From Enterobacteria phage KhF2: a stretch of DNA of 64,000 bases. The stretch lies in sequence record KT184314.1; one strand, 5' to 3'. Below, piece after piece: positions 705 to 39,762 of the stretch. The notes beneath the pieces were generated by a model. It was given only the letters and a program-made list of their open reading frames with translations, did not search any database and had not been told where the DNA came from. A program made the translations under genes and the position numbers. Within the stretch, counting starts at the first letter, position 1. Each line of letters starts with the position of its first letter.

Positions 705-780
705 TGGTAGTCCAGTGGGATTTGAACCCTCTTCTCATGTTTTTCAGACACGCGCTTTAACCATATAAGCTACTTGGACT
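705..780 (-). tRNA. tRNA-Phe (anticodon GAA)
   Basis: Hand-folded cloverleaf; T-loop TTCAAAT; anticodon loop CTGAAAA; CCA encoded. Confidence 0.6.
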
Positions 781-786
781 ATAAAT

Positions 787-862
787 TGGGGTGACCTACG
801 GGATTTGAACCCGTATAGACCATGTTCACAGCATGGGTCATTACCATTTATGATAAGGCCAC
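787..862 (-). tRNA. tRNA-His (anticodon GTG)
   Basis: Anticodon stem CCATG/CATGG with loop CTGTGAA; T-arm CGGG-TTCAAAT-CCCG; CCA encoded. Confidence 0.6.
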
Positions 863-893
863 ATTTAAGGACTCTCGTAAGAATCCTTAGAAG

Positions 894-969
894 TGGCAGC
901 GGCATAAGGATTTGAACCTTAATAGGACAGCTTCAGAGACTGTTGCATTGCCAGTTATGCTATACCGCT
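894..969 (-). tRNA. tRNA-Gln (anticodon CTG)
   Basis: Acceptor AGCGGTA/TGCCGCT, D-stem GCAT/ATGC, anticodon loop CTCTGAA, G73, CCA encoded. Confidence 0.6.
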
Positions 970-974
970 AAATT

Positions 975-1054
975 TGGTACTCCATATCGGATTCGAACCG
1001 ATACATAACACAGATTTTAAGTCTGGCCTCTCTGCCAATTGGAGTAATGGAGCA
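975..1054 (-). tRNA. tRNA-like, anticodon probably TAA (Leu by anticodon), atypical short variable loop
   Basis: T-arm ATCGG-TTCGAAT-CCGAT and CCA present; anticodon loop CTTAAAA on a 4 bp stem; D-arm weak. Confidence 0.35.
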
Positions 1055-1055
1055 T

Positions 1056-1131
1056 TGGCGGGGGATGTTGGAATTGAACCAACTTCTTCGATTTCAAAGA
1101 CCGAGGTTTTAACCTTGTAAACTAATCCCCT
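1056..1131 (-). tRNA. tRNA-Gln (anticodon TTG)
   Basis: Acceptor AGGGGAT/ATCCCCC with G73; D-stem GTTT/AAAC; anticodon stem TCGGT/ATCGA with loop CTTTGAA. Confidence 0.55.
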
Positions 1132-1139
1132 TTAAATCT

Positions 1140-1697
1140 TTACTTTCTCAGTGGATGAATAAAGAATGCCAACATAACTCTTTCCCTTGAGAATGCTCTT
1201 TCTTCTGGGACAACACTTTTTAGTTTCCATCCAATATAAATTCTCCAGTAAAACTGTTTACCAAAGACTTTAATTGATGGGATAAAGGCGAATAATCCCC
1301 AAGCATTACTGTTCCACATTAGGAGATAACCAGTCTGATTATCTTCAGGGTCAGAACTTACGTTGATATTACCTTTCCACTTAGTAACATCTTTTACATC
1401 TCTTCCTAATACATGGTAAGAGAAGTTATAAGCTTTGTTTCTCCAGAGCCATCCGACTCTTTGCATGTAGACGCCTAGTTTACCAATCCATCTAATATTA
1501 GCCCATCTTTTAACGTGACCTTCATCACCATCAATTGGGTTGTCATATGTCTCCATCCATCTGAACCCGAAAGGTAAGCGTCCTTTCTTCTCACTGTAGA
1601 ATGGAACTACAAAAGGTGCTAAGATAACTGCTAAGATTGCTGCAAATGGCTCTAACAAAGCTAAGAAAATCCATGAAACATATTTTAAGTATCTCAT
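1140..1697 (-). CDS. hypothetical membrane protein (185 aa) embedded in tRNA array
   Basis: ORF track; hydrophobic N-terminus; start overlaps stop of upstream ORF (ATGA). Confidence 0.45.
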   Translation of the reverse strand: MRYLKYVSWIFLALLEPFAAILAVILAPFVVPFYSEKKGRLPFGFRWMETYDNPIDGDEGHVKRWANIRWIGKLGVYMQRVGWLWRNKAYNFSYHVLGRDVKDVTKWKGNINVSSDPEDNQTGYLLMWNSNAWGLFAFIPSIKVFGKQFYWRIYIGWKLKSVVPEERAFSRERVMLAFFIHPLRK

Positions 1698-1936
1698 TGT
1701 CTAACCCTCGTAAGGAGGTAAGCATTATTATTTGTTTCTGAGCTTTCTGGTAACATTGTCTCAAAATTGACGCTTTTAAGTTGTCTTCCACCAAAGCAAT
1801 GACCAATAAATCTTTCTACTTTTATTGGGTCGCATTCCCATCCGACTTTCAAGAAAATGTGGGTATCTATAGTGGGAACCCTTACAAACTCAATACTATT
1901 GGGATTTTCATGTTCAACGACGATTAATGTTTGCAT
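1694..1936 (-). CDS. hypothetical protein (80 aa)
   Basis: ORF track; translationally coupled to 1140..1697. Confidence 0.4.
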   Translation of the reverse strand: MQTLIVVEHENPNSIEFVRVPTIDTHIFLKVGWECDPIKVERFIGHCFGGRQLKSVNFETMLPESSETNNNAYLLTRVRQ

Positions 1937-1954
1937 AAATTCCTCTTGCTTATC

Positions 1955-2030
1955 TGGCGCAGGATAAGGGATTCGAACCCCTATTAACAGCTTCGTAGAC
2001 TGTTGCTCTATCCATTTGAACTAATCCTGC
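1955..2030 (-). tRNA. tRNA-Arg (anticodon ACG)
   Basis: Acceptor GCAGGAT/ATCCTGC, anticodon stem ACAGT/GCTGT with loop CTACGAA, T-loop TTCGAAT, CCA encoded. Confidence 0.6.
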
Positions 2031-2035
2031 AAAAT

Positions 2036-2113
2036 TGGTGTTCCAAGACGGATTCGAACCGTCACTAGTACAAGGTTTGAGCTTGCATCCTCTGCCAATT
2101 GGGATACTGGAAC
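2036..2113 (-). tRNA. tRNA with anticodon CAA (Leu by anticodon) but class-I-like short variable loop
   Basis: Acceptor GTTCCAG/TTGGAAC with A73; anticodon stem GCAAG/CTTGT with loop CTCAAAC; only a 6 nt variable region. Confidence 0.45.
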
Positions 2114-2114
2114 A

Positions 2115-2193
2115 TGGTACTCACTAAAGGACTTGAACCTTTTTCTTCATCTTGTAAGGGTGATGTTTTACCATATAAACTAAGCGAGTATGA
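2115..2193 (-). tRNA. tRNA-Val (anticodon TAC)
   Basis: Acceptor ACTCGCT/AGTGAGT, D-stem GTTT/AAAC, anticodon loop CTTACAA, A73, CCA encoded. Confidence 0.55.
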
Positions 2194-2195
2194 AA

Positions 2196-2283
2196 GAGGT
2201 CTGGAGTTGTGCCGCTAACTCAACTCCGTGGAATTTGTTACGGTCTTCAGTTGACTCAAAGCGGTCTTTCACTTGACCTCTGA
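2196..2283. ncRNA. structured RNA candidate / non-canonical tRNA-like element
   Basis: Closing stem GAGGTC...GACCTC plus internal hairpins (GGAGTTG...CAACTCC; CCGT...ACGG); no canonical T-loop found. Confidence 0.25.
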
Positions 2284-2285
2284 AT

Positions 2286-2362
2286 TGGTGCTGCTCACAG
2301 GACTCGAACCTGCATTTCCATCCTTACAAGGGATGTGTAATAGCCAATTATACGAAAGCAGC
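2286..2362 (-). tRNA. tRNA-Thr (anticodon TGT)
   Basis: Anticodon stem CATCC/GGATG with loop CTTGTAA; T-loop TTCGAGT; CCA encoded. Confidence 0.6.
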
Positions 2363-2368
2363 ATTGTT

Positions 2369-2443
2369 TGGAGCATCCAGAGGGAATCGAACCCTCAACC
2401 TCAGTTTGGAAGACTGTAATTTTCCCGTTTAAACTATGGATGC
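2369..2443 (-). tRNA. tRNA-Gly (anticodon TCC)
   Basis: Acceptor GCATCCA/TGGATGC; anticodon loop CTTCCAA; T-arm GAGGG-TTCGATT-CCCTC. Confidence 0.6.
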
Positions 2444-2449
2444 ACTAAT

Positions 2450-2526
2450 TGGTGGAGAAGCAGGGAATTGAACCCTGTACTTAAGTTTGCAAAACTTATG
2501 TTTTAACCATGTAAACTACATCCCCA
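2450..2526 (-). tRNA. tRNA-Ala (anticodon TGC)
   Basis: G3:U70 wobble pair in acceptor stem (Ala identity element); anticodon stem TAAGT/ACTTA with loop TTTGCAA. Confidence 0.6.
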
Positions 2527-2531
2527 ATGTC

Positions 2532-2607
2532 TGGTACAGGTGGAGGGAATTGAACCCATCGTCTTACTGATTAAGAGTCAGCCGCATAACCATTTTGCTA
2601 CACCTGC
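2532..2607 (-). tRNA. tRNA-Lys (anticodon CTT)
   Basis: Acceptor GCAGGTG/CACCTGT; anticodon stem GCTGA/TCAGT with loop CTCTTAA; T-stem only 3 clean pairs. Confidence 0.5.
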
Positions 2608-2614
2608 ATTAATT

Positions 2615-2692
2615 TGGTAGGAGACAAGGGATTCGAACCCTCAAACACCAACTTCTAAGGATGGTAGGTTTACCAATTACCATCAATCTCCC
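2615..2692 (-). tRNA. tRNA with anticodon TAG (Leu by anticodon), short variable loop
   Basis: T-arm GAGGG-TTCGAAT-CCCTT; anticodon stem CCATC/GTTGG (one mismatch) with loop CTTAGAA; A73. Confidence 0.4.
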
Positions 2693-2948
2693 ATTAAATC
2701 TTTTTAGAGAACTTCTAAGAACCTGAGCAACAAGGTTCCACAACAAGCGACTAATAACCTTAGAAGCCCTCTAAAAAGACCTAAATAGGTCTTTGCATAG
2801 TCTTGTTTAATCCGGTGACTAGAACCTTTGGAGAGCTTGATATTATCTCTTCTCCGTGACACCTACTAGGTGCTTTGACAGTGTACGACAATACACGAGG
2901 GATAAACCGACAATGCGAACAAGCATGGACGGAGTAAATCTTATTAGG

Positions 2949-3036
2949 CGGTAAGTAAAGGAGTCGAACCCTCACCGTATCTCTACAGTGGCAACTGTTT
3001 TCAAGACAGTTTGGCTACCATTAGCCGCTACCTACC
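2949..3036 (-). tRNA. tRNA-Ser (anticodon TGA), class II with long variable arm
   Basis: 88 nt; acceptor GGTAGGT/ACTTACC, G73; anticodon stem ACTGT/ACAGT with loop CTTGAAA; long extra arm; CCA not encoded. Confidence 0.55.
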
Positions 3037-3049
3037 CCTAATAAGACTT

Positions 3050-3132
3050 TGGCATGGGACGGAGGAGTTGAACCCCTTTGAAACGGTTTTGGAGGCCGTT
3101 GCTCATGCCTTAGAGTCTTAACATCGTCCCAT
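3050..3132 (-). tRNA. tRNA-like, possible Trp (anticodon CCA), atypical 5' region
   Basis: Good T-arm and acceptor ATGGGAC/GTCCCAT with G73; anticodon-like stem-loop ACGGC-CTCCAAA-ACCGT; about 7 extra nt between acceptor and D-arm. Confidence 0.3.
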
Positions 3133-3274
3133 ATTATAATTCGAAGCTTACCCTGTTATCTCAACACTGTCAAGCTTCTTCTCAGATTATTTACATGTTC
3201 TGGAAAACATGAGATACAGACCACCTCCCTACAGGAAGACCCGCTAAGGCCGTCTAAGTAATCTGCTAACTATT

Positions 3275-3356
3275 TGGTCGAGGCGGCAGGACTCGAACCC
3301 GCATACTCCACTTACTCGGTTAACGGCGGTTTAGAAGACCGCTGAGATACGCCCCG
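3275..3356 (-). tRNA. tRNA-like, possible Arg (anticodon TCT), atypical architecture
   Basis: Acceptor CGGGGCG/CGCCTCG, T-arm GCGGG-TTCGAGT-CCTGC, perfect stem-loop GCGGT-CTTCTAA-ACCGC; D-arm not identifiable, 23 nt between anticodon arm and T-arm. Confidence 0.3.
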
Positions 3357-3604
3357 TAATTATCTTTAAAGACTCTCTTAGAAAGCCCTTAAAGATGCCC
3401 ACCTTATTAATCATACCGTGGGCGAGTACGCCAAATTCTTTAATGAGGGATTGGAAGACCTCACTGGTGTTTAGCCTATCAAGCTACTGCCAGAAAAACA
3501 TTGTCGTTTGCATTTATTTTAAATTTGCAAAATAGACGCTACGCAACGAAAACTAAGGTTACTATAAAGCAGTCACATCTCAATGTCAACAACTTTATTG
3601 AAAT

Positions 3605-3680
3605 TGGTACTGGTAGGTGGAATCGAACCACCGATGTTCCCTTATCAGGGGAGTGTTATAACCTTCTTAACTATACCAGC
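3605..3680 (-). tRNA. tRNA-Ile (anticodon GAT)
   Basis: Acceptor GCTGGTA/TACCAGT; T-arm GGTGG-TTCGATT-CCACC; anticodon loop CTGATAA. Confidence 0.55.
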
Positions 3681-3681
3681 T

Positions 3682-3758
3682 TGGAGGTTCAGATGGGAAT
3701 CGAACCCACATTCATAGGGCTTATGAGACCCTTGCATTACCTTATCTGCGACTGAACC
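3682..3758 (-). tRNA. tRNA-Met (anticodon CAT; elongator, initiator or Ile2 not distinguished)
   Basis: Acceptor GGTTCAG/CTGAACC; anticodon stem AGGGT/GCCCT with loop CTCATAA. Confidence 0.55.
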
Positions 3759-3762
3759 ATAT

Positions 3763-3838
3763 TGGTAGAAGTGGAGGGATTCGAACCCATCGCCTGTCAG
3801 ATTAAAAGTCTGCCGCATCACCATTCTGCTACACTTCC
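3763..3838 (-). tRNA. tRNA-Lys (anticodon TTT)
   Basis: Acceptor GGAAGTG/CACTTCT; anticodon stem CAGA/TCTG with loop CTTTTAA. Confidence 0.5.
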
Positions 3839-4035
3839 ATTAAATTATCTTTGTAGATAAGCTACCCAGACTTGCTTAAGGTCTGTAGCGATGTGCCTTG
3901 TTGGGTTTAAATCTAGAATTTACCCTTTCACCCTTTGTGGTCGCATACTCACAGGTAAGCTTAATAACTTATCTACAAAGATAATTACCAGACCGTTGTT
4001 TATCATCTTAAGTGCTACCATTACACCAACTCGAC

Positions 4036-4063
4036 ATCTGCCGAGTGAAGGAATCGAACCTTC
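4036..4063 (-). pseudogene. tRNA 3' fragment (T-arm plus acceptor 3' strand without a matching 5' half)
   Basis: GAAGG-TTCGATT-CCTTC T-arm followed by ACTCGGC-A; no complementary 5' acceptor strand within 100 nt. Confidence 0.25.
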
Positions 4064-4270
4064 GCCTTTTCTTTACCGGAGAAATAGATTGTTTAAGTTT
4101 TGCTGTAAACGGTCTTCTGTAAATTTGTTGAGCCAGACCAAGTTTTAAATTTTTTCAAAATTAAATTGGCTTGAAATTTTCATACGTTCTTGATGTATTT
4201 GGTCTTCTGCTCCTTTAAAGAATACTCGTAAGAACTCTTTAAGGGAGGGGCTAAATAGCCCTCTCAAAAT

Positions 4271-4347
4271 TGGCGGCTACGATGAGACTTGAACTCACAT
4301 CATCTCCCGTGACAGGGGAGTATTTTCTCCAGTTAAACTACATAGCC
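4271..4347 (-). tRNA. tRNA-Asp (anticodon GTC)
   Basis: Acceptor GGCTATG/CGTAGCC with G73; anticodon stem CTCCC/GGGAG with loop CTGTCAC. Confidence 0.6.
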
Positions 4348-4352
4348 TTTAT

Positions 4353-4440
4353 TGGTGTGCCGTGTAGGAGTCGAACCTACCGAGTCTCAATGACAAGGGA
4401 TTTACAGTCCCCACCGCTACCATCTACGGGATAACGACAC
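4353..4440 (-). tRNA. tRNA-Tyr (anticodon GTA), class II
   Basis: 88 nt; anticodon loop CTGTAAA; long variable arm; T-arm GTAGG-TTCGACT-CCTAC. Confidence 0.6.
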
Positions 4441-4448
4441 ATTTAATT

Positions 4449-4525
4449 TGGCGGTTAGTCAGGGATTCGAACCCTGTGCCATTCGCTTAACAGGCGACCG
4501 CACATACCTTATGTGCTTCCTAACC
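4449..4525 (-). tRNA. tRNA-Asn (anticodon GTT)
   Basis: D-arm GCAC-ATAAGGTAT-GTGC; anticodon loop CTGTTAA; G73. Confidence 0.55.
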
Positions 4526-4602
4526 TTAATACATTGCCAGACCGTGTTTTTTCTTTTATCCGCAAAAAGTATTTTGTTGCTGAATACGGTCTTCTGCAAA
4601 AT

Positions 4603-4679
4603 TGGAGGCGGGTGCAGGAGTCGAACCTGCCGATACCATGCTAATGAGACATGTGAGACGCCCTTTCTCTATACCCGCA
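4603..4679 (-). tRNA. tRNA, anticodon probably CAT (second Met/Ile2-type), fold imperfect
   Basis: T-arm GCAGG-TTCGACT-CCTGC; candidate anticodon stem CATGT/GCATG with loop CTCATTA (unusual T37). Confidence 0.4.
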
Positions 4680-4768
4680 ATTCTTAATGACCAGACCAAA
4701 TATCTTCTTTGTCCGATTAACTTTCAGATGAGTAGATTAAGTTTGCTGTAATTGGTCTTCTGTCAAAA

Positions 4769-4847
4769 CTGGCGTTCCAGAAGGGATTTGAACCCTCAGA
4801 TATCCACTTTGAAAGAGTGGTGACTTTACCATTTTGTCTACTGGAAC
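4769..4847 (-). tRNA. tRNA-Glu (anticodon TTC)
   Basis: Acceptor GTTCCAG/CTGGAAC with G73; anticodon stem CCACT/AGTGG with loop CTTTCAA. Confidence 0.55.
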
Positions 4848-4854
4848 ATTAATT

Positions 4855-4930
4855 TGGTCTCTGTTGGAGGACTTGAACCTCCGGCCTTACCGCCCCAAAC
4901 GGAACGCTCTACCAAGCTGAGCTAAACAGA
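4855..4930 (-). tRNA. tRNA-Pro (anticodon TGG)
   Basis: Canonical D-arm AGCTCAGCTTGGTAGAGC; anticodon loop TTTGGGG; T-arm GGAGG-TTCAAGT-CCTCC. Confidence 0.6.
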
Positions 4931-5096
4931 GATAAACTTTTCAAACTCTATGTAACAACTTTAACATTATTTTTTAGTGGTTGTCAAGAACTTTTTTAAA
5001 ATATTTTTCAGTATCTTAGAAAAGCTCTCATTTCGTTTCTATGTAGAACATATTAAAGGGTATTAAACACATTGTCAATACCCTTTTTAAAACTTT

Positions 5097-27704: not shown

Positions 27705-28814
27705 TTAGATTTCACGTTTACGCTGAGAGATAAGTTCACCAGCAGTGCCAACGATGACATGCAGAGCTTCAGTCTTGCCATCCCACGCTTTCAGTACCTT
27801 ACGTTGATTATCAACGATTGCTGCAACTTCATAACGAGACGAGCGCATCTTCATATCATTGTAATCAGTTGGAACAGATACAACATCTCGTGGATGGACA
27901 CGAACCTTCAGAATTGTATCGCCTGAGAAGCAACGAACATAATCCCAAGCACCAACGTGAAGACCTTGAGAGCAAGTCACGTTACGGTTATTATCAACCA
28001 TCCAACGTGGCATTTCTACAACGTTACCCAAATCATTAGGTACTTTGTAGGTGTGGGAGTCAACCAGCTTGCCTTCACGAGTGGATACTTTCTTCCAACC
28101 AATGATGTAGCCTTCCTCATCAATTTCGACATCAAGGTGAGATACGAAGCCCCAAAGTTGTTCTACAGAGTCTTTAGATGGGTTTTCCATCAGTTTTTCG
28201 AAGAACATCACAAGGCGTTCAAAGCCTTTGTCTCCAGTCTTCATCATGTGAAGAATACGGTCAACCAGAGTAGAACGCATCTCAACAGCACCGTAGAATA
28301 GCTTGTCGCCTTTGATTGTGATAGCACCCTGAGTGAAGTTTTCGATAGACTTACGAATGTTCATCAGTTCAAATGCTTTCTTGAACTCACCTTTCACAAC
28401 ATGAACTACAATCTCTTGATAGTTCGGATGAGTAGACTCAACAATTTCAGATTCTGAACCATAAGTCATAATTACAGAATCACCAGTAATCATGTACTCA
28501 ATCTTGTCATCTTTCTGCATAGCTTCGTGCAGTTTATTTACTGGAGCTTTCTGTACAGCGTCTTTAACTACCTTTTCAACTGGTTTTCCATCTTTCTTCT
28601 TAAAGGTCTTAGCAACTTGTTTCAAAGTCTTCGTAGCTGGTGTAGAAGTTGCCTTCTTATTCCCTTTTAAGGTTGCTTCATGACGCTCTACAGCACGACC
28701 GACTGAACGGGTTGAAGTATTAAATTTCTGTGCAATAGCTGTTTTAGTCAGCTTACCTTCTTTAACCAGTTTGTAAATTTCTGCGTCAATCTGTGCTTTA
28801 GTTTTAGTAGTCAT
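27705..28814 (-). CDS. rIIB: rIIB-like protein
   Basis: Directly downstream of the rIIA-like gene, similar size class; assignment by synteny, not motif. Confidence 0.4.
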   Translation of the reverse strand: MTTKTKAQIDAEIYKLVKEGKLTKTAIAQKFNTSTRSVGRAVERHEATLKGNKKATSTPATKTLKQVAKTFKKKDGKPVEKVVKDAVQKAPVNKLHEAMQKDDKIEYMITGDSVIMTYGSESEIVESTHPNYQEIVVHVVKGEFKKAFELMNIRKSIENFTQGAITIKGDKLFYGAVEMRSTLVDRILHMMKTGDKGFERLVMFFEKLMENPSKDSVEQLWGFVSHLDVEIDEEGYIIGWKKVSTREGKLVDSHTYKVPNDLGNVVEMPRWMVDNNRNVTCSQGLHVGAWDYVRCFSGDTILKVRVHPRDVVSVPTDYNDMKMRSSRYEVAAIVDNQRKVLKAWDGKTEALHVIVGTAGELISQRKREI

Positions 28815-28893: not shown

Positions 28894-31260
28894 TTAATCG
28901 TAAATTGTAGTCCCTTCTGGAACACATTTTACATCAAAACCTAAGAACTTACTCACTTCGATGGGTGACACTTTATTCCAATCTAAATGAGAAAGCAAGA
29001 AGTTTTCTTGTTTTCTTTTTGAAAGATAGTTTGTCACCTTAATAACCATACGGTCACCAGCTTTCTTAATTTTCTTGTAAAGCTTTGTATCGTTGTCAAG
29101 GCAGTCTTTCAAAGTTTTCAATACACTAATGGTATAAGTGTATGCAAATGGTGCAGCAACGTATTGGATTTTACCGAACATTGCCTCTACAGCCTCTTCA
29201 TTTCCTTCTAGGAAGATAGTTTTGTTTGTATCCCTTGAATAACAATACCCGCGAGAAATCTTCCTGTTATTAAACGTAAAGTTTCTGGCAATAATCCAAC
29301 TGCTTGTAAGGTCAAGGACACCATTCATATAGATACGCGTCATATATCTGTTATGGTTAATCCAGTGAACATCAGTTAAGCTGTCGTTCAAGAGTTTCTC
29401 ATCTACTTCAATCCAATCTTCTGGTATCTTTTTCCAATTTGCTTTTCGGAAAACATAGACTGTCTTACCTGTAACATTAGCAACTGACTTAGCTACATCT
29501 TCTGGAGATGAGCAAAAACATTCACCATCAACTGTGTCACCGATTGCCTTAATGTAAAGCTGAGGTTCTTCAATTGTGTCTAAGTCCTCTGACACCTCTT
29601 TGTAGGAGGCTACACCTTCTGCTGGAACAGCTTTCCAGAGTTTTACAACACCTCTTACAGCTTCTTTACGTTGGTAATGGTGTTCCTTATCAGACATTTT
29701 CACAATCTTTAACAAGCTTTTATCAAGTTTGTGCAGATTGATTAAGTCATCTAACTCTTTTTCAGTCGAGAATACAAAGACAATACCATTGTATCTGTGA
29801 AACAGACTTGACTCACTGGCATAGTCTCGACATGCACCACGCAAGATTTGGTTGCGTCCTACAGTCTTCTCAGTACCATTTTTATTGCGACGGTCATTTA
29901 TAACAAACAAAAACTGTTCAATTTGGCTTTTACGCATTGCGCCAAAGATATTGAACATACTTGCCTCTTGAGTGTAGGAAAGTGCTGTTGCACGAATCTT
30001 ACTCTCTAAAGAGTTGAACTTGACATAAGCAACTGGGTCATAAAGATAATCTACTTTAGGGATGTTGTTTCCGTTCCTATCAACCTTAATATTACCTTTA
30101 CCGTCACGTTCATAAATGACTGAGCCGTCTTCTGCGTAGATAATTCCACGACGAATGTTTAGTAATTCTTCTTCCAGAGAATCAAGCTTAACGCCTCCCC
30201 ACTCTAACTTTGGACACACAGCATTAAACATCTCTCGTGAGTTCAAACGTAACTCAGCATAAGCCTGTGCAGCATCCATGAGTGTAGGTTGACTGTTAAC
30301 TTTCTTGATAACATCCTTTGTAATTGCTTCAGTTATCTTTTTAGTAGCCTCAATGATAACATTTTTTGTCGTGTCATTCATCTGCAATGCTTCACGAGAA
30401 GCTGCAATAGCGACTGAACCAATAGGCATGTAGATGTTTACAAGGTCTACGCTCCTACGGAAAAATTCTGGCAATACTTTGAAGAAATCATCACCAAGTA
30501 ATGCTTCCATGTTAACAGGGTAGGCAATGTTACCCATCACCACATTAAACTCTGTCCTGTTATCACTAGAACGCCAGCTGTGCTTATGAATCATGGCATC
30601 ATAAACACCTTCTTCACGGGCAATGACGTTCATATCTGCTAATACATCGTCGTACTCAATATTACTTTCTGGTTTTACAGTGAAGTATGAGTACACATTC
30701 CCAGCTTCTTCAAAGAACTTTGAGATACGGTGGTCAGCAACCGCCACACGTACAGCTAAACCATTAGGTTCTTTTGTTGGGTTAGTTGTCAGCTTAGTTA
30801 CTTGAGGGATACCATTCTCAAGATAAACAGAGTACTTATTAACAACACCATCAACATAGCTAGATACTGTGAATGACTGAGCAATTGCAAATGGTGACTT
30901 TGAGCCGATACCCATTGCACCAATGTAGTCATTAGAGTCATTCTTCGTAGAAGCTCCATAGTTTAGGTACAAACTCATAACTTTATCATGAGTCAATCCA
31001 GTTCCAAAATCACGAACTTCGAAGTAAGGCTCAAAACGAGTAGGTAAATGCACATGGAACGGGATGTTCTCTTTTCCAGCCTCTTTCTGAGCATCTACTG
31101 CGTTACATGACAGTTCACGAATCACTGCCCTTTCTTTAAAGGTATATACACCAGAACTCAAAAGGCTGAACATCTCAGGTGTCATTGTAATCTGTGCTTG
31201 AGACGTCTCTAAAGAAGTTGAACTCTTAATCACTTCTGCGTGGTCGTTTACCATGCGCAT
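28894..31260 (-). CDS. rIIA: rIIA-like protein with N-terminal GHKL (Bergerat-fold) ATPase motifs
   Basis: Motifs VIRELSCNAVDA, RDFGTGL and GAMGIGSKSPF correspond to the N, G1 and G2 boxes of GHKL ATPases as found in T4 rIIA; 788 aa. Confidence 0.6.
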   Translation of the reverse strand: MRMVNDHAEVIKSSTSLETSQAQITMTPEMFSLLSSGVYTFKERAVIRELSCNAVDAQKEAGKENIPFHVHLPTRFEPYFEVRDFGTGLTHDKVMSLYLNYGASTKNDSNDYIGAMGIGSKSPFAIAQSFTVSSYVDGVVNKYSVYLENGIPQVTKLTTNPTKEPNGLAVRVAVADHRISKFFEEAGNVYSYFTVKPESNIEYDDVLADMNVIAREEGVYDAMIHKHSWRSSDNRTEFNVVMGNIAYPVNMEALLGDDFFKVLPEFFRRSVDLVNIYMPIGSVAIAASREALQMNDTTKNVIIEATKKITEAITKDVIKKVNSQPTLMDAAQAYAELRLNSREMFNAVCPKLEWGGVKLDSLEEELLNIRRGIIYAEDGSVIYERDGKGNIKVDRNGNNIPKVDYLYDPVAYVKFNSLESKIRATALSYTQEASMFNIFGAMRKSQIEQFLFVINDRRNKNGTEKTVGRNQILRGACRDYASESSLFHRYNGIVFVFSTEKELDDLINLHKLDKSLLKIVKMSDKEHHYQRKEAVRGVVKLWKAVPAEGVASYKEVSEDLDTIEEPQLYIKAIGDTVDGECFCSSPEDVAKSVANVTGKTVYVFRKANWKKIPEDWIEVDEKLLNDSLTDVHWINHNRYMTRIYMNGVLDLTSSWIIARNFTFNNRKISRGYCYSRDTNKTIFLEGNEEAVEAMFGKIQYVAAPFAYTYTISVLKTLKDCLDNDTKLYKKIKKAGDRMVIKVTNYLSKRKQENFLLSHLDWNKVSPIEVSKFLGFDVKCVPEGTTIYD

Positions 31261-31782: not shown

Positions 31783-31802
31783 AATCTTCTCCAGAAATTA
31801 AA

Positions 31803-31828
31803 AAGGCTCCCGTAGGAGCCTCTTATCA
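31803..31828 (-). terminator. rho-independent terminator
   Basis: Minus-strand GGCTCCTACGGGAGCC followed by TTTTTAATTT. Confidence 0.6.
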
Positions 31829-31835
31829 TATACTT

Positions 31836-33617
31836 TTAAAGCTGCTTGTCAATATTATTTCGAATATCACCAAGAGTTGTGTATCCGAACTGCTCAGAGT
31901 CACTAAAGACTAGACGTAAAGCACAAGCTGGATGTTCAAGTGCATCTGCAAAGCTCTGGAACCCATAGCCATCTACAGCTTTCAGATTTTCACCATCCCA
32001 CATAGGTGCTACACCACCAAAAGCAGACTTCTTAACACCACTATCTGTTTTAGGGTCTTTTGCAAGCATAATCTCTTTACCACCAATGCTTGCAAGGGTT
32101 GCTTTGACAGCAAATGCAAAGGTGTCACGAGTCATGTACTGGTAAGTGTAAGAACCTACACCAAACACTACGTTAGAGCTTGCAAAACCCATTTCATACA
32201 AACGCTTCAGTATTTCATTTGCACGTTCCAACGTGATAGAGTCGCCATAAATAAGTCCAATATGCTCATCCAGTACCTTAAAACCTTTAGAGTTAATAGT
32301 TCCTCCAAAGATGTTATACAGTGTCTTGATAGCTCCATCAATCTCAGCTACAGGACGTGTTACAACGTTTGCAGAACCAACCATATAAGCATTTTTCAAC
32401 ATCACTGTATCAGCAACTTCAAAGTCTTCTCTGTCAACAACCATCTCGTAGCCTTCTGACAGTAGCCATCCAGCAATACCATAGTTGATGTTCTCAAGCT
32501 TCATGTTCAGAACAGCATTCAACATTGTGTCACTGGCTTCCAGCTTGCTTAGGTGCTCGTAATAAGCCTTCTTAGCACATTCTAAGTGGATTGCTTTATA
32601 ACCTGTGACAATATGTACAGGGTCTCCAGAGTCAGGGCGAATTACCAGTTTGCCATCACGTCCCATAATTTCTTTACGAAGTGCTGGTAAGATTTCTGAC
32701 ACAGTTCTCCAGAAGTTATAAGTATCTGAAACAATGCTTGCAATACCTGTTGGGTAAGTTTCTGTTAAGAAACGACGGAAGGTTTGTAACTCACCTTTAA
32801 AGCGTCTTTCTTCTTCAATCAACTCATTACCACCTTCCCAAGCAATGTTTGCACACATTACAGAGTGCTCAGTGGCTGGTACAGAACTACCAATATCAGA
32901 GATTGGGTAGGACTGTCCATAGATTCGTTTAGCCGTGTATACAGCAGGGAAGCTATCAGTCCCTTTAAAGCTGGTTAAGTGACCTACAGCGTTAAATGCG
33001 TCATCAGTAAAGCCGGACATACCACGCATAGCAAAATCATGGCACTGATAAGGTAAATGTAAGTCATTGTCACAAGTAAGGTCAGCCCACTTCTTACAGA
33101 TGCGTTTGTAATGCAATGCAATAGTTGCAATGGTGCAAGCCTTCCAAATTTCAGCAGAGAAAGCATCTTCCAGATAACCTGCTACCCAATGAAAACCTGA
33201 AACAGTGTTCTGAAAGACAATCATCGGGACACGCATTGGAACAACTGTGCCTTCTTCTACAGCGTATACTTCAACTGGTAGATAACCTAAGTCGTGAAGT
33301 GCTTCCCAATGCTCTCGACCGATAGCATCTTTACCCAGAACACCATTCATGACTTCTAAGATTTCATCAATGGCTTCTTTTTTATCACGTTCAAAGAAAG
33401 TGGCATTCCAGTGGTCTATCAAGTAATCTTTAACAAAACGTTGAATACCAAAAGCCACTACACCGTCAATTGCTAAGGGGCTGTTAAACCATTTGTCGCT
33501 ACGTGGTGTCAGATTGAACATCAAGTACTCTGTTGCGCTAGGATACTGGTAAACATGACCAGATTTGTAAGCATCTGCATTTAAACCTGCTGGTACTGCA
33601 TAAAGTGATTTAGTCAT
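31836..33617 (-). CDS. nicotinamide phosphoribosyltransferase (NAMPT/NadV)-like protein
   Basis: 593 aa; recalled similarity to the NadV/NAMPT family (not motif-verified); paired with a PRPP-synthetase-like gene. Confidence 0.6.
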   Translation of the reverse strand: MTKSLYAVPAGLNADAYKSGHVYQYPSATEYLMFNLTPRSDKWFNSPLAIDGVVAFGIQRFVKDYLIDHWNATFFERDKKEAIDEILEVMNGVLGKDAIGREHWEALHDLGYLPVEVYAVEEGTVVPMRVPMIVFQNTVSGFHWVAGYLEDAFSAEIWKACTIATIALHYKRICKKWADLTCDNDLHLPYQCHDFAMRGMSGFTDDAFNAVGHLTSFKGTDSFPAVYTAKRIYGQSYPISDIGSSVPATEHSVMCANIAWEGGNELIEEERRFKGELQTFRRFLTETYPTGIASIVSDTYNFWRTVSEILPALRKEIMGRDGKLVIRPDSGDPVHIVTGYKAIHLECAKKAYYEHLSKLEASDTMLNAVLNMKLENINYGIAGWLLSEGYEMVVDREDFEVADTVMLKNAYMVGSANVVTRPVAEIDGAIKTLYNIFGGTINSKGFKVLDEHIGLIYGDSITLERANEILKRLYEMGFASSNVVFGVGSYTYQYMTRDTFAFAVKATLASIGGKEIMLAKDPKTDSGVKKSAFGGVAPMWDGENLKAVDGYGFQSFADALEHPACALRLVFSDSEQFGYTTLGDIRNNIDKQL

Positions 33618-33662
33618 CTTTTAATCTCTCTCAAAATGGGGCTTGGAAGCCCCTATAAAGTT

Positions 33663-34559
33663 TTAATCAAGGTTTGCTACAGTAACTTGGCTATAATGTG
33701 TTAAGCCACGGTCTTTAGCTTCCCCTAAAGAGTTTGTAGTGTAGATATGGTCAATACCATTGTCAAGCAAGTTTTCAACATCTTTAGAGAAAATACCATG
33801 AGTTACATAGAGTTCCACACGTTTTGCACCTGCTTCACGAAGATGTTTGGCTGCTTCTATGAAGGTTCGACCTCCATCACAAATATCATCCAGAATCATG
33901 ACAGTTTTATCTGTCAAATCAACATCGTCAAGGATTCGCATACCAGTAATTTCACCAGTCTTAAGGTTACGCACCTTAGACATTGTGATGTATGGTTTAT
34001 CCACCTCTTTAGCAGTCTCTGCAATCTTCTTAGCAGCACCTGCATCTGGGGCTACTAAGTAATCAATCAGTGGGTCATTTGCGTAGTGAACTGCAATCTC
34101 CTTTTGAGGAATACTCTGGAAGCAGTTAAACAGGTTATCTGGAACGTAACTGTGAGGGTCAACTGCACAGACTGCACCAAATCCCATTGCATTTACCTGT
34201 TTAGCAAAAACCTTTAAAGCTGCTGCGTCGCCTTTAAACATGTGACGGTCATAACGTGCATTTGGTAAGTAGTAAAAGATGACAGTCTTTAAAGCATAAT
34301 CATGAGGAATTAAATCATCAATTGCTTCTTTAGCAAGTGCCACAGCAAACAATGTATCCTTATCATAACCTTTTACAATCATAATCACATTGTTGATGGA
34401 TGATGCTGCATAAGCAGTGAAATCAACAAACTCTGGCGAAAAGTGTCCACCAATCTCACCAGAAGGAAATTGGATGATGTTAAACTCTTCTTCATGAGTT
34501 CCTTTAGTTGGTGAATGAACTGTAACACGGATAGATGTTTTCATAGTTTTCTCTCTCAA
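33663..34559 (-). CDS. ribose-phosphate pyrophosphokinase (PRPP synthetase)-like protein
   Basis: PRPP-binding signature VMILDDICDGGRT; 298 aa. Confidence 0.6.
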   Translation of the reverse strand: MREKTMKTSIRVTVHSPTKGTHEEEFNIIQFPSGEIGGHFSPEFVDFTAYAASSINNVIMIVKGYDKDTLFAVALAKEAIDDLIPHDYALKTVIFYYLPNARYDRHMFKGDAAALKVFAKQVNAMGFGAVCAVDPHSYVPDNLFNCFQSIPQKEIAVHYANDPLIDYLVAPDAGAAKKIAETAKEVDKPYITMSKVRNLKTGEITGMRILDDVDLTDKTVMILDDICDGGRTFIEAAKHLREAGAKRVELYVTHGIFSKDVENLLDNGIDHIYTTNSLGEAKDRGLTHYSQVTVANLD

Positions 34560-34834
34560 TCAAAAGTTACGTTTGTTACTGCCATTGCAGATTTGCATTT
34601 TGCAGGGTCTACAACGTGATAAAGTACACTACAGTTACCTGTGCTGTCTGGTACAGGTTTAACCCATTGTTGCTTGACAGTTGGTTCGCCTAAGTCTTTG
34701 TAAGAACCATCTGTAAAGTTGTTTACCATCTCAAGTGCAATTGGCTCTGGAACATGACCACGTATCATGTACATTTCACAACCATTACCTCCTTCACTGA
34801 CTAATGGTAAAATCTCCCACTTTTCTTTAGCCAT
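34556..34834 (-). CDS. hypothetical protein
   Basis: ORF track; coupled start. Confidence 0.45.
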   Translation of the reverse strand: MAKEKWEILPLVSEGGNGCEMYMIRGHVPEPIALEMVNNFTDGSYKDLGEPTVKQQWVKPVPDSTGNCSVLYHVVDPAKCKSAMAVTNVTFD

Positions 34835-35342
34835 TATAAGTTGCCCTATAAACTGTCTCGAACTTCAACAGGAGAGATATTGCCAAATCTGTATAGTTGT
34901 TGTCAAGCACATCTGGCATATTATTTTTGATATATTTCTCTTGCTCTTCATAGGTCATCTTAGGGATACTTAGGAGGCTATCTCCTTGCTTCTGGTTATC
35001 AGTTTTAGTTTGGATAAACCAGTTCGCACAGTGATGTTCACCACCTTTTGTAACAGGTTTGTGGTGGCCTAGTGTAAATGTTTGCTTACCCGTATACCTG
35101 CAAAGATTGTTCAGTGTTGCAATGGTGTTCTTCACAACACACCATTCATACAGGTTATCTATTGTGTAGTGTGGGTAATAACGGACAAGTGCTCTTTCAC
35201 GGAAGTTATCACGATTCCAAAGAACCATGTGATTAGAATTTGAAGGGTCATATTTGTGGGAGTCTATAAACTCTTGACGCTCATCAAAGCTGAGTCTTAG
35301 AACTGACATTGCAACCGAACGTTTCAGGTTTGACAGATACAT
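34827..35342 (-). CDS. possible HNH-family endonuclease
   Basis: His-rich segment GHHKPVTKGGEHHCANW resembles an HNH core; weak. Confidence 0.3.
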   Translation of the reverse strand: MYLSNLKRSVAMSVLRLSFDERQEFIDSHKYDPSNSNHMVLWNRDNFRERALVRYYPHYTIDNLYEWCVVKNTIATLNNLCRYTGKQTFTLGHHKPVTKGGEHHCANWFIQTKTDNQKQGDSLLSIPKMTYEEQEKYIKNNMPDVLDNNYTDLAISLLLKFETVYRATYNG

Positions 35343-35393
35343 TTTACCTCCAAAATAAAAAGGGAACCTTTACAGTCCCCTTATAGTATCTGT

Positions 35394-35714
35394 TTACTGA
35401 GCTACTTTCAAGATGCTTGTGAATGAAATATCACTCTCATCCATAAACTCTTTTGCTTCTCCAGTAACTTTCACAAAGTTATCTAGGCAGATAATCTTCT
35501 TATCTTTCTTGCTGTAGGTTAGCTTAACCTTTTCAATATCTTTCTTAGAGCTTTTCTCTTCATTAAAGAGTTTTACAGCTTCTTTGAATGGGAGGTATGA
35601 GCCATCATCATCGCTAATAAAACCTGTACCACAATAGTAGAAGTTGTATTCTTTAGCCATAAACTGGCACAGTACGAAAATCTGTAATTTACGAGTGTTA
35701 TAAACTTTGCTCAT
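35394..35714 (-). CDS. hypothetical protein
   Basis: ORF track. Confidence 0.45.
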   Translation of the reverse strand: MSKVYNTRKLQIFVLCQFMAKEYNFYYCGTGFISDDDGSYLPFKEAVKLFNEEKSSKKDIEKVKLTYSKKDKKIICLDNFVKVTGEAKEFMDESDISFTSILKVAQ

Positions 35715-37617: not shown

Positions 37618-39762
37618 TTACATAGAAATTCTGTCACGAATCTCAGCGATTTTTGCATCATTCATTCGAGATTCACCTTTAATCTTAGTCCACCCAAGAT
37701 ATCCGCACACCCTGTTAATCACAGAGATGTCGTGTGAATGGCAAACCTCACATTCTTCAACATCAGCCTTTGGTCTGTTACCACAATGTTCACAGATTGC
37801 TAAGTCAAAGTTAAGTCCCTGATAAAAACCCTTCAACATCCCTCTGGTAATACAACTTTTAAGTGCTGGCAAGTTTTCTGGGTTAGCTACCCTTACATAC
37901 TGGATTCTGCCGCCTCTACAGATATGGAAGAATGGCTCTTCTAAGTCCTGCTTCTCAAATGGTGAGATGTCTGCTGCAACATTCATATGGAAACTGTTTG
38001 TAAAGTATTCCTTGTCAGAGACACCTTTAATGACGCCAAACATATCTCTGAACTGTTTTAACTGAGTTCCACAAAGTGATTCTGCTGGAGTGCCATATAC
38101 CGCATACAAGAAGCCATCTTCGTTCTTAAACTCTTCAGTTTTCATGTTGATGTATTCCAGAACATCATATGCAAAACTATAGCCTCCAACTTCATGAAGT
38201 CGTTTACCTTCAGCAAGAACAGACAGCTCATCAAGAGCAGTAACCCCAAAAGAAGCTGTGAAGGACTTCACGATATCCCAACCAACCTTGTCAGTAGGTT
38301 TCTTAGTCCCTTTGTACAGACCACCTTGTGTGAATGCAAGAGGGTTAGAACTTGCTGGCATATTAGCAATCATTTCGTAGCGTTTCTTGTGGAAGCTGCG
38401 AATCATCTCTAGGTACTTATCAAGCTCTTTCCAGAAATCTAAACCATTCTCTTTAGAATACTGGTAAATCATTGGTAAGTTCAAAGATACAGCACCAATG
38501 TTAGCACGACCAACGTAGAACTCTTCCCCATCCTCGTTAAGATATGGAGATAAGAAGGCTCTACAACCCATCGGCGAGATTACCTTGCCAGAACGCTCAA
38601 AAGCTTCTGCTACAGCACCATGACCAGATACACTTAAGAAATCTGGATACATCGCTTTAGAGCAACACTCTATAGCTTTACTGTACAGGTGGCCTTGACA
38701 GATATTCTCATTATGTCTCTTCTGGTCATAAATATAAACCAGTTTAGGGAATACAACAGGTTTCTTGCTCTTACCTTGTCCATTCATACGAACATCTAGG
38801 AGAGTACTTGCAATCATATATTGCAGTCGGTTATCTTCATTAGACATATCTGAGTCAAGTAACCCGAATGTCAAAGTTGTAAATGCAAAATCCCCACGGC
38901 TACAAGGTACGGTATTTAGTTTCATTTCAAGTGACTGGAAACCTTGAGTTAGTTCAATCTGTAGCTGCTCCATTACATAATTGTGGTAATGCTCTTTAGG
39001 AATACCATAAGATGATGCTTTCTCAGCATGATAGCGTAGAGACTTCTTAGCATACGGTACAAGTACCTTATCAATCTCTGCTAAAGTAAAACCACCAAAT
39101 TGCTGTGCAGTTGCTGAAAGTACTACGTCACCAATAACCTGCAACGCTGACAGTACAGATTTAGGTTCACAGTACTCAATGCCGGACATTTCAAAGCCAC
39201 CTTTTAGTACTTTACCAATGTCAAACAGGCAACAGTTAATACCACCAAAAATCAGGTCTCTCAAATCGTGGATATAGATAAAGCCTTTCTCAATGGCTTC
39301 AAGTTCCTCTGGTGTTAGATGATACTGTTTAAATATTTCTTTAGTCAGGTAACCACGGATAATTGAACCTTTCGTAGAAATTAAACTGCTGTCAAAGTTA
39401 GCATTTTCACGGTCACCTAAGAAGAGTGTATCTTTAGTCTTCTGGTAGAGTTCGTCCCAATTTTGAGCAACCTCTTTACGGTAATTTCTGTATGTTGAGT
39501 AAGACTCATAAATCTCGTGATTGACCTCTGCCAAAGCACCTTCAACAATACTGTGAATATCATTTACCGAGATAAGCAAATTATTCTGCTTAGTGGACTT
39601 TACCAAAATCCTCATGAATGCTGACTCAAGAGCTTGGGTAACATCTGGTGGAAGTTCTTTATATCCAACCCTGTTAGCTGACTTAGCTACTGCTGCTAAA
39701 ACTTTTTTGATATCGGGTTCTTCAAGTGAGCCGTTCTTTTTAATAATCTGTACTTTGTTCAT
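37618..39762 (-). CDS. nrdD: anaerobic ribonucleoside-triphosphate reductase (class III)
   Basis: 714 aa; C-terminal glycyl-radical motif RVCGYLG and C-terminal Cys cluster (CEHCG...CEVCHS). Confidence 0.8.
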   Translation of the reverse strand: MNKVQIIKKNGSLEEPDIKKVLAAVAKSANRVGYKELPPDVTQALESAFMRILVKSTKQNNLLISVNDIHSIVEGALAEVNHEIYESYSTYRNYRKEVAQNWDELYQKTKDTLFLGDRENANFDSSLISTKGSIIRGYLTKEIFKQYHLTPEELEAIEKGFIYIHDLRDLIFGGINCCLFDIGKVLKGGFEMSGIEYCEPKSVLSALQVIGDVVLSATAQQFGGFTLAEIDKVLVPYAKKSLRYHAEKASSYGIPKEHYHNYVMEQLQIELTQGFQSLEMKLNTVPCSRGDFAFTTLTFGLLDSDMSNEDNRLQYMIASTLLDVRMNGQGKSKKPVVFPKLVYIYDQKRHNENICQGHLYSKAIECCSKAMYPDFLSVSGHGAVAEAFERSGKVISPMGCRAFLSPYLNEDGEEFYVGRANIGAVSLNLPMIYQYSKENGLDFWKELDKYLEMIRSFHKKRYEMIANMPASSNPLAFTQGGLYKGTKKPTDKVGWDIVKSFTASFGVTALDELSVLAEGKRLHEVGGYSFAYDVLEYINMKTEEFKNEDGFLYAVYGTPAESLCGTQLKQFRDMFGVIKGVSDKEYFTNSFHMNVAADISPFEKQDLEEPFFHICRGGRIQYVRVANPENLPALKSCITRGMLKGFYQGLNFDLAICEHCGNRPKADVEECEVCHSHDISVINRVCGYLGWTKIKGESRMNDAKIAEIRDRISM

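Follow-up and report, generated by a model that had tools for sequence, protein, structure and literature searches.

The region between positions 31836 and 34559 of the 64,000-nucleotide stretch of phage DNA analysed here (the window) holds two adjacent genes, one resembling a nicotinamide phosphoribosyltransferase (Nampt) and the other a PRPP synthetase (Prs), and the question is what they do together. A preliminary description, made from the letters of the DNA, had proposed the pair as a candidate NAD+ reconstitution anti-defence module, fitting the ADPR-pyrophosphate (ADPR-PP) route. Both open reading frames are exactly where that description put them. They lie on the minus strand, one at 31836..33617 with an ATG start and 593 aa, the other at 33663..34559 with a TTG start and 298 aa. 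[quoted passage not shown] We consider it very probable that the two genes are the core NARP1 operon of a Felixounavirus. This reading builds on orthology, synteny, fold and the conservation of published catalytic and specificity residues; the enzyme activities and the anti-defence phenotype would follow by analogy with characterised relatives.

Genomic context of the gene pair

Judged by sequence identity, the genome that carries the pair is that of a Felixounavirus (FelixO1-like coliphage), the window being 99.7% identical to Felixounavirus LF82P5 and 96–99% identical to many FelixO1-like coliphages. Between the adps stop codon and the start of namat lie 45 nt, which places a Namat homologue within ten genes of adps, and there is no ORF in this 45-nt spacer. 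What the spacer does contain is a GC-rich hairpin (GGGGCTT-NN-AAGCCCC, followed by ATTTT; 33638..33653, minus strand) with a predicted RNA folding energy of -13.7 kcal/mol (z -2.1), the stem of which is invariant in the window, Bas63 and phage wV8, all variation being confined to the loop. Another hairpin with a T-run, resembling an intrinsic terminator, is found on the same strand 12 nt past the namat stop codon (31801..31824). On the upstream side, a consensus scan picked up a terminator-like hairpin (35382..35360) and an overlapping promoter-like site (35411..35383), also on the minus strand. These elements (35360..35411) are likely to be the upstream boundary of a four-gene block made up of a 171 aa gene, a 92 aa gene, adps and namat.

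The two upstream genes were considered as possible parts of NARP1 and rejected. They were compared by tblastn with the Nampt locus of VH7D and with four NARP1 loci, those of Erwinia phage Prophecy, Pseudomonas phage PAK_P2, ICP1 and SPbetaL1. The 171 aa gene had a match in the related Erwinia phage locus alone, and the 92 aa gene had none in any of the loci compared. Because of this distribution they are treated as lineage synteny, with no functional link to the pair. Pfam searches with the flanking 92, 171 and 111 aa gene products gave no match, Macro and RyR domains included, and from these searches and the ORFs the Macro-domain phosphatase Adpp and RyDEP are absent from the operon. Such additional genes are known from other NARP1 systems: NARP1-AP of Vibrio phage Gary consists of Adps, Adpp and Namat, and Mycobacterium phage DyoEdafos has a NARP1 that contains RyDEP. 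The window operon shares the Adps and Namat core with both, but has no third gene.

Orthology with the NARP1 genes of Bas63

Bas63 is Escherichia phage JohannRWettstein (MZ501086), a Felixounavirus, and its genes 79 and 80 are the founding example of NARP1, which was identified there by knockout. Gene order and sequence identity make the window pair their positional and syntenic orthologue. Both genomes have the order NrdD, NrdG, gp76, gp77, gp78, gp79 (Adps), gp80 (Namat), gp82, gp83 and rIIA, so that the pair sits in the same position between NrdG and rIIA in two phages of the same genus, with the same hairpin in a spacer of about 45 nt. One difference is a small extra gene directly downstream of namat in Bas63, bas63_0081, which the window lacks. 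The window Namat is 98.5% identical to gp80 and the window Adps 78.5% identical to gp79. Identities to the wV8 proteins are 99.0% for Namat and 98.3% for Adps, and in the published NARP1 tables these wV8 proteins are listed as 'Adps-associated' and as Namat-associated, respectively.

The genes of Bas63 have been studied in infection. Without genes 79-80 the phage no longer overcomes SIR2-HerA and does not keep up NAD+, and ADPR-PP has been detected in Bas63-infected cells (bioRxiv 10.1101/2024.02.11.579819). In an independent study, deleting g79 or g80 singly led to a 1e4- to 1e6-fold drop in plating efficiency, which was rescued by complementation. The defect of these mutants is specific to hosts carrying an NADase defence; on the defence-free hosts tested, the region is scored as non-essential.

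The Nampt-like enzyme, a Namat by sequence and fold

The preliminary description assigned the 593 aa protein to the NAMPT family from its resemblance to that family, and suggested searches with family HMMs and an inspection of the active-site residues. The assignment is borne out by HMMs, catalytic residues, the clamp motif and a structure match. The protein (31836..33617, minus strand) matches NCBIfam PRK09198 with 467.5 bits (cutoff 405, E 4e-140), PHROG 448 'nicotinamide phosphoribosyl transferase' with an E-value of 1e-201, and in Pfam both NAPRTase (E 2e-34) and NAMPT_N. Together with the matches of its partner to TIGR01251 and PHROG 619 (see below), this puts the family assignments of both proteins far beyond chance. 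The catalytic core of Nampt-like enzymes, for which D13', Y15', F189, R192, D215, R306, D308 and the catalytic His of SPbetaL1 served as reference, is conserved, and the conserved residues in the window protein are D15, Y17, F195, R198, D221, A248, H251, R327, D329, G458-D459, G488-S489, R497 and D498.

The enzyme is better named Namat, a nicotinamide ADPR-transferase, than Nampt. In the alignment the selectivity-clamp helix (residues 488-498; 32124..32156, minus strand) reads GSYTYQYMTRD, compared with GSFTYQYNTRD in the Namat of SPbetaL1 and GGGLLQQLDRD in the KVP40-type Nampt of VH7D. The second element is the selectivity-clamp loop RSDKWFNSPLAI (33468..33503, minus strand), which is identical to that of Bas63 and includes the segment PRSDKWF with K42 and W43. 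In this loop an Arg at position 3 stacks on the adenine, and if a Lys or Tyr stands there it is the next residue that does so; the Namat of Bas63 is the published example, with a Lys in the third position and the fourth residue stacking. The window protein has K42/W43 in place of the R40 of SPbetaL1, and stacking on adenine is predicted from its sequence. By alignment, then, the aromatic adenine clamp specific to Namat is present in the 593 aa protein, and it is absent from Nampt.

The structural comparison agrees with this. An AF2 model of the protein (pLDDT 93.8) has its best PDB matches in 9w5x and 9w5w ('Crystal structure of Namat', from SPbetaL1) with a TM score of 0.95, and human NAMPT comes behind these with about 0.90. 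At the sequence level the protein is about 43% identical to the Namat of SPbetaL1 and about 29% to the KVP40-type Nampt of VH7D. The gene is under strong constraint, with a dN/dS of 0.03 against Bas63.

These data bear on whether the pair could belong to the NARP2 type, as in Vibrio phage KVP40, in which a Nampt makes NMN and a phage Nmnat converts it to NAD+. The preliminary description had named NadV genes of large vibriophages as relatives, which is right in that the proteins are of the same superfamily, but the vibriophage genes belong to this separate pathway and the identity is only the 29% given above. NARP2 and cellular Nampt/NadV with Prs share two enzyme superfamilies and the Nampt catalytic core with the window pair. 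They differ from it in lacking the aromatic clamp, in the partner gene, and in the donor, which is PRPP for them and, by analogy, would be ADPR-PP for the window Namat. In the window the partner is an Adps and not an Nmnat, and the near-identical wV8 protein is among the 'Adps-associated' ones in the published tree table. The clamp motif and the partner gene, both read from sequence, thus effectively refute the NARP2 reading, to which we give next to no probability.

The Prs-like enzyme, an Adps by sequence

The start of the Prs-like gene is most likely the ATG at 34544, five codons past the TTG at 34559, because it is preceded by a Shine-Dalgarno-like run (GAGAGAG, of the same type as the run before the other gene) and because the resulting 293 aa are the length of Adps as annotated in Bas63 and wV8. 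The gene would then cover 33663..34544 on the minus strand. Of the lengths given earlier, the 593 aa of the Nampt-like protein stand and the 298 aa should probably be corrected to 293; the longer version is the product of a mechanical search for the longest ORF, which extends to the TTG.

The protein matches TIGR01251 (ribP_PPkin) with 123.6 bits (cutoff 113), PHROG 619 with an E-value of 5e-97, and Pribosyltran and Pribosyl_synth in Pfam. PADLOC returned only weak, generic PRTase-fold matches (ShosT, PsyrT), which are uninformative. None of the NCBIfam equivalog cutoffs for Prs is reached; PRK00934, the best of these models, gives 103.6 bits where 296 would be required. In blastp the protein scores 116 bits against the Adps of ICP1, 100 bits against that of SPbetaL1 and 61 bits against E. 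coli Prs.

A MAFFT alignment with SPbetaL1, ICP1, Bas63 and E. coli Prs identifies K190 (33975..33977, minus strand) as the putative catalytic lysine, corresponding to K162 of SPbetaL1 and K185 of ICP1, where the mutations K162A and K185A abolish activity. The PRPP-synthetase signature VMILDDICDGGRT noted earlier was located at 33864..33902 (minus strand); it is the PP-loop and ribose-binding motif with D219, D220 and D223, and it aligns with D212/D213/D216 and the C215-S220 PP loop of ICP1. The acceptor groove and PP loop are conserved by comparison with F18, R87, H121, D161, D212, D213 and D216 of ICP1, the window residues being F26, R97, H131, D167, D219, D220 and D223. Besides these and K190, F228 is conserved. 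F92 of ICP1, which contacts the adenine of ADPR, is replaced by Met102 in the window and by Met in Bas63 as well. The C-terminal helical segment of canonical Prs, the alpha11-alpha12 module, is missing from the window protein in the alignment with E. coli Prs. Identity to wV8, the blastp scores, the missed equivalog cutoffs and the alignment all place the protein in the Adps clade by sequence, and not with canonical Prs.

It is against this background that conventional salvage has to be weighed, in which the Prs-like enzyme would make PRPP from ribose-5-phosphate, the NadV-like enzyme would make NMN from this PRPP and nicotinamide, and the NadR or NadD of the host would finish NAD+, as a general metabolic boost instead of a counter-defence. 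Public records do label the pair ribose-phosphate pyrophosphokinase and nicotinamide phosphoribosyltransferase or NadV, the broad TIGR01251 subfamily cutoff is passed, and Namat-family enzymes retain some PRPP-dependent NMN formation in vitro (Osterman et al., bioRxiv 10.1101/2024.02.11.579819), so by analogy the window Namat may have a minor salvage role. However, the Prs-like protein falls at least about threefold short of every Prs equivalog cutoff, the score against validated Adps enzymes is about twice that against E. coli Prs, and the 593 aa protein has the clamp found in Namat and not in Nampt. In SPbetaL1, Adps uses ADPR, and Namat yields only NAD+ when given both donors (bioRxiv 10.1101/2024.02.11.579819). 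Orthologues have already been shown to make ADPR-PP, and the deletion phenotype in Bas63 is limited to NAD+-depleting hosts. Taken together, salvage as the main function is very unlikely.

Proposed function of the operon

As a NARP1 operon, the pair would act once NAD+ has been split into ADP-ribose (ADPR) and nicotinamide by an NADase defence of the host, such as SIR2-HerA, type I Thoeris TIR, DSR1/DSR2 or SEFIR. Going by the orthologues, Adps would make ADPR-PP by moving the beta,gamma-pyrophosphate from ATP to the 1'' hydroxyl of ADPR, and Namat would then replace the pyrophosphate with nicotinamide, giving NAD+ directly. The phage would in this way retain NAD+ and escape abortive infection. 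These reactions have been demonstrated for the enzymes of SPbetaL1 (Adps, gene 190; Namat, gene 191, solved by crystallography as 9w5w and 9w5x), of ICP1, for which Liu et al. 2026 give structures of Adps, and of DyoEdafos. The biochemistry comes from SPbetaL1 and ICP1 enzymes that are just 36-43% identical to the window proteins. They share with these proteins the residues for catalysis and specificity, and also the fold (TM 0.95). Since the core of two genes lacks Adpp and RyDEP, it should counter SIR2, TIR and DSR2-type NADases and not aRES; it is predicted neither to counter aRES-type defences, which produce ADPR-1''-phosphate, nor to consume cyclic ADPR signals.

Diverged cassettes of the Adps N-terminal domain

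Another difference from Bas63 lies in the N-terminal domain of Adps, where the window carries a different allele. In the nucleotide identity profile, identity drops to 61-75% within a sharply bounded cassette (34072..34522, minus strand) and is 90-98% in the flanks. The domain (codons 1-157) is 66.9% identical at the amino acid level, with saturated synonymous sites (pS 0.78); the C-terminal domain is 91.9% identical, with a dN/dS of 0.10. Bas63 is the sole Felixounavirus in which the operon has been deleted, and it carries the other allele. Across 253 phage records the allele classes are bimodal. Recent positive selection was considered as the source of the divergence and rejected, given the saturation (pS 0.78) and the sharp boundaries, which instead point to an old allele imported by recombination. 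From sequence, there would be at least two anciently diverged cassettes of this domain that recombination exchanges, while the neighbouring Namat hardly varies.

One may ask whether the window allele alters the function of Adps, be it through another acceptor such as a modified ADPR, through regulation, or by loss of function. A cassette so sharply bounded in a locus that is otherwise 90-98% identical, the bimodal classes, and the fact that in ICP1 this domain supplies adenine contacts and oligomer interfaces (Liu et al. 2026) all speak for such a change. Yet the published ligand-contacting residues of the domain, F26, R97, M102 and H131, are the same in both alleles, and most records (about 155 of the 253) have the window type, which is always found beside an intact Namat and under strong purifying selection (dN/dS 0.035 against wV8). 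We regard an altered function as more improbable still than conventional salvage, and an unchanged NARP1 Adps as the reading to keep.

An inserted segment in Namat

The window Namat also differs from the enzymes of SPbetaL1 and ICP1 in length. It has about 14 additional residues at roughly 258-271, and an insertion of about 87 aa after RPDSGDPvhIvTG (residues 341-427; 32337..32597, minus strand), as seen in the alignment. Neither the Namat of SPbetaL1 and ICP1 nor Nampt has the larger insertion, and the bacterial homologues of 496 aa lack it too. It is shared with the Namat of Bas63, which has the same clamp loop and clamp helix; it is confidently folded in the prediction, with no recognisable fold relative. 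The insertion and the Adps cassettes are not addressed in the NARP1 literature examined, and we see them as modest leads on the evolution of the pathway. The reading that the NAD+ arms race has a second layer, formed by these two features, is unlikely, if somewhat less so than the alternatives above. In that case the cassettes might let Adps evade sensing or inhibition by a host factor, or adjust its specificity for the acceptor or in regulation, and the inserted domain might give Namat regulation, partner docking or ligand binding.

Implications

The NARP1 pair in the window is real, already known, and nothing new in kind. Structures of both NARP1 enzymes now exist. The value for annotation is direct: public records say Prs and NadV for genes that are Adps and Namat. 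Phages of this type serve in therapy and typing, and the pair also allows a prediction of their host range. Because the operon has no Adpp, the phage should stay sensitive to aRES-type defences, and it should resist NAD+ depletion of the SIR2, TIR and DSR types.

Assignment to NARP1

Judged from its sequence, the gene pair at 31836-34559 on the minus strand is a textbook member of the already characterised NAD+ reconstitution pathway 1 (NARP1). This system was first found as 'genes 79-80' of Escherichia phage JohannRWettstein (Bas63, MZ501086), where a phage without these genes is sensitive to SIR2-HerA and no longer keeps up NAD+, and where ADPR-pyrophosphate (ADPR-PP) was seen as a new metabolite in infected cells (bioRxiv 10.1101/2024.02.11.579819). 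The same study used purified homologues to assign the two steps: Adps, which is Prs-like, pyrophosphorylates ADPR, and Namat, which is Nampt-like, joins nicotinamide and ADPR-PP to give NAD+. A second, independent study found that single deletions of g79 and g80 in Bas63 cause 1e4-1e6-fold plating defects on SIR2-HerA hosts, which complementation rescues. For retron Ec86 and hhe the effects were weaker.

The ORF listing places namat (593 aa) at 31836..33617 and adps (298 aa) at 33663..34559, the latter containing the Prs-like motif VMILDDICDGGRT at 33864..33902, all on the minus strand. The 593 aa protein scores 467.5 bits against NCBIfam PRK09198 (curated cutoff 405, E 4e-140), and is matched by PHROG 448 'nicotinamide phosphoribosyl transferase' (E 1e-201) and by both NAPRTase and NAMPT_N in Pfam. 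Its neighbour hits the Pfam families Pribosyltran and Pribosyl_synth as well as PHROG 619 (E 5e-97), and passes TIGR01251, the broad ribose-phosphate diphosphokinase subfamily model (123.6 bits, cutoff 113). In all Prs equivalog models it is far below cutoff, for example with 103.6 against 296 bits. The preliminary description had placed the two proteins in the NAMPT family and among Prs-like proteins, and both families hold, as do the coordinates of the pair, but the start codon of adps needs correction. An ATG at 34544 lies downstream of a GAGAGAG run, a ribosome-binding sequence of the type also seen before namat; starting there gives 293 aa rather than 298, in agreement with the annotation of related phages.

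Namat aligns with Bas63 gp80 without gaps at 98.5% identity, and Adps with gp79 at 78.5%. At 98-99% identity, both also match proteins of phage wV8, which are included as Adps-associated Namat and Namat-associated Adps in the supplementary tables of the discovery paper (bioRxiv 10.1101/2024.02.11.579819). Together with the synteny to g79/g80, this supports the earlier reading of the pair as an NAD+ reconstitution anti-defence module. NARP1 is already known, and this phage belongs to the genus in which it was discovered.

Residues and predicted structure

The active-site residues expected of both enzymes are present in the alignments. In Adps, the catalytic lysine K190 is kept (equivalent to K162 in phage SPbetaL1 and K185 in ICP1), as are the acceptor and PP-loop residues R97, H131, D167, D219, D220, D223, F26 and F228. 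Canonical Prs has a C-terminal segment which this Adps lacks in the alignment, and validated Adps enzymes give bit scores (116 and 100) roughly double that of E. coli Prs (61).

Structural work on SPbetaL1 Namat has defined two features: a Nampt-like core, which is conserved, and a 'selectivity clamp' specific to Namat. In a MAFFT alignment, all core residues are kept: D15, Y17, F195, R198, D221, A248, H251, R327, D329, G458-D459, G488-S489, R497 and D498. In the clamp helix the sequence is GSYTYQYMTRD, whereas the KVP40-type Nampt of vibriophage VH7D, with only ~29% identity, has GGGLLQQLDRD at this position. The clamp loop, PRSDKWF, is the same as in Bas63, whose loop the structure paper cites for a Lys followed by a stacking residue. 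For an AlphaFold2 model of Namat (pLDDT 93.8, pTM 0.92), the best PDB matches are the Namat crystal structures 9w5x and 9w5w (TM 0.95), with human NAMPT behind.

Chromosomal homologues of 495-496 aa (P0069, P0073, P0075, P0082, P0100 and others; 40-48% identity) were seen in Klebsiella, Cronobacter, Kosakonia, Erwinia and Phytobacter, in contigs as large as ~6 Mb. The Namat-type clamp motif GS[FY]TYQYNTRD is found in the aligned P0069, P0073, P0082 and P0100, which is consistent with a published report of bacterial NARP1 homologues. In ICP1 (MW794154, 3715-5172), the 'hypothetical protein' adjoining Adps looks N-terminally truncated in its annotation, because the Namat tblastn match extends 138 nt further upstream than the annotated start.

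Two variable segments

Two segments are minor leads and do not make a new kind of system. One is a cassette of ~450 nt in adps (codons ~8-157, 34072-34522, minus strand), with nucleotide identity to Bas63 of 61-75% between flanks of 90-98%, and 66.9% amino-acid identity. Recent positive selection as the source of this divergence was considered and rejected, based on saturated synonymous sites (pS 0.78) and sharp boundaries. Identity in this stretch has a bimodal distribution across 253 phage records (~155 at 89.8% or above, 98 at 74.2% or below). By the pattern of its divergence, the cassette is instead an exchanged old allele. Values of dN/dS are 0.10 for the Adps C-terminal domain and 0.03 for Namat. 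Some phages, such as ekra, carry the other cassette together with a 98%-identical Namat, and the known Adps ligand contacts are identical in both alleles in the alignment.

The other segment is an insertion of ~87 residues (341-427) after RPDSGDPvhIvTG in Felixounavirus-type Namats. Inserts at this site differ between Namat clades, and the site is empty in SPbetaL1, ICP1 and the 496 aa enterobacterial homologues. The insert has a confident predicted fold both in context and alone (pLDDT 92.5). The structure paper includes Bas63 Namat in its alignment and does not mention the insertion.

Genomic context and predicted defence range

The 4 kb surrounding the pair are 99.7% identical to Felixounavirus LF82P5, and dozens of FelixO1-like coliphages match them at 96-99%, among them wV8, HY02 and the O157 typing phages. 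These matches, the neighbouring rIIA, NrdG and NrdD genes, and a cluster of 23 tRNA genes (705..4931, minus strand) are all typical of Felixounavirus, to which Bas63 belongs. Both phages share the gene order NrdD, NrdG, three small genes, a 171 aa gene, a 92 aa gene, gene 79, gene 80, small genes and rIIA.

It is worth noting two local differences. Bas63 has an additional small gene of ~345 nt (bas63_0081) that is missing at ~31785 here, between the namat terminator and a 111 aa gene, an indel directly downstream of the NARP1 operon. NrdD (714 aa, 37618-39762, minus strand) is uninterrupted here; in the Bas63 annotation it is joined from two parts that enclose a homing endonuclease gene, and over this stretch the alignment of the two phages breaks down.

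In consensus scans, a block of four genes lies between two minus-strand terminator-like hairpins (35382..35360 and 31824..31801): the 171 aa gene (34827-35342), the 92 aa gene (34556-34834, phrog_4726), adps and namat. The first two, also on the minus strand, seem to share a transcript with NARP1. The 171 aa product has 88.9% identity to Bas63 gp77, described in a preprint as a GIY-YIG protein that counters retron Ec67; a Pfam search with it found nothing, and in PHROGs the only similarity was a weak one to an HNH endonuclease (E 2e-6). The spacer after the adps stop codon, ahead of the namat ribosome-binding site, holds a GC-rich hairpin, GGGGCTT-NN-AAGCCCC followed by ATTTT (33638-33653, minus strand). 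Its stem is invariant among this phage, Bas63 and wV8, which differ only in the loop. It might act in attenuation or in stabilising the mRNA.

Two extended forms of NARP1 have been described. In one, a Macro-domain phosphatase, Adpp, is encoded between adps and namat and lets the phage use the ADPR-1''-phosphate made by aRES defences; in the other, the RyR-domain glycosidase RyDEP channels cyclic ADPR signals into NARP1. Since the adps-namat spacer is only 45 nt, and the small proteins flanking the pair have no match in a Pfam search, this phage has the two-gene core form. For this reason, we infer that it should counter defences releasing plain ADPR and nicotinamide, and should not counter aRES. 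By position, rIIA (788 aa, 28894..31260, PHROG 612) and the adjoining 369 aa ORF (27705..28814), both on the minus strand, should correspond to Bas63 g84/g85, reported to counter QatABCD. If they are the counterparts of these genes, anti-defence functions would be concentrated between ~27.7 and 35.3 kb.
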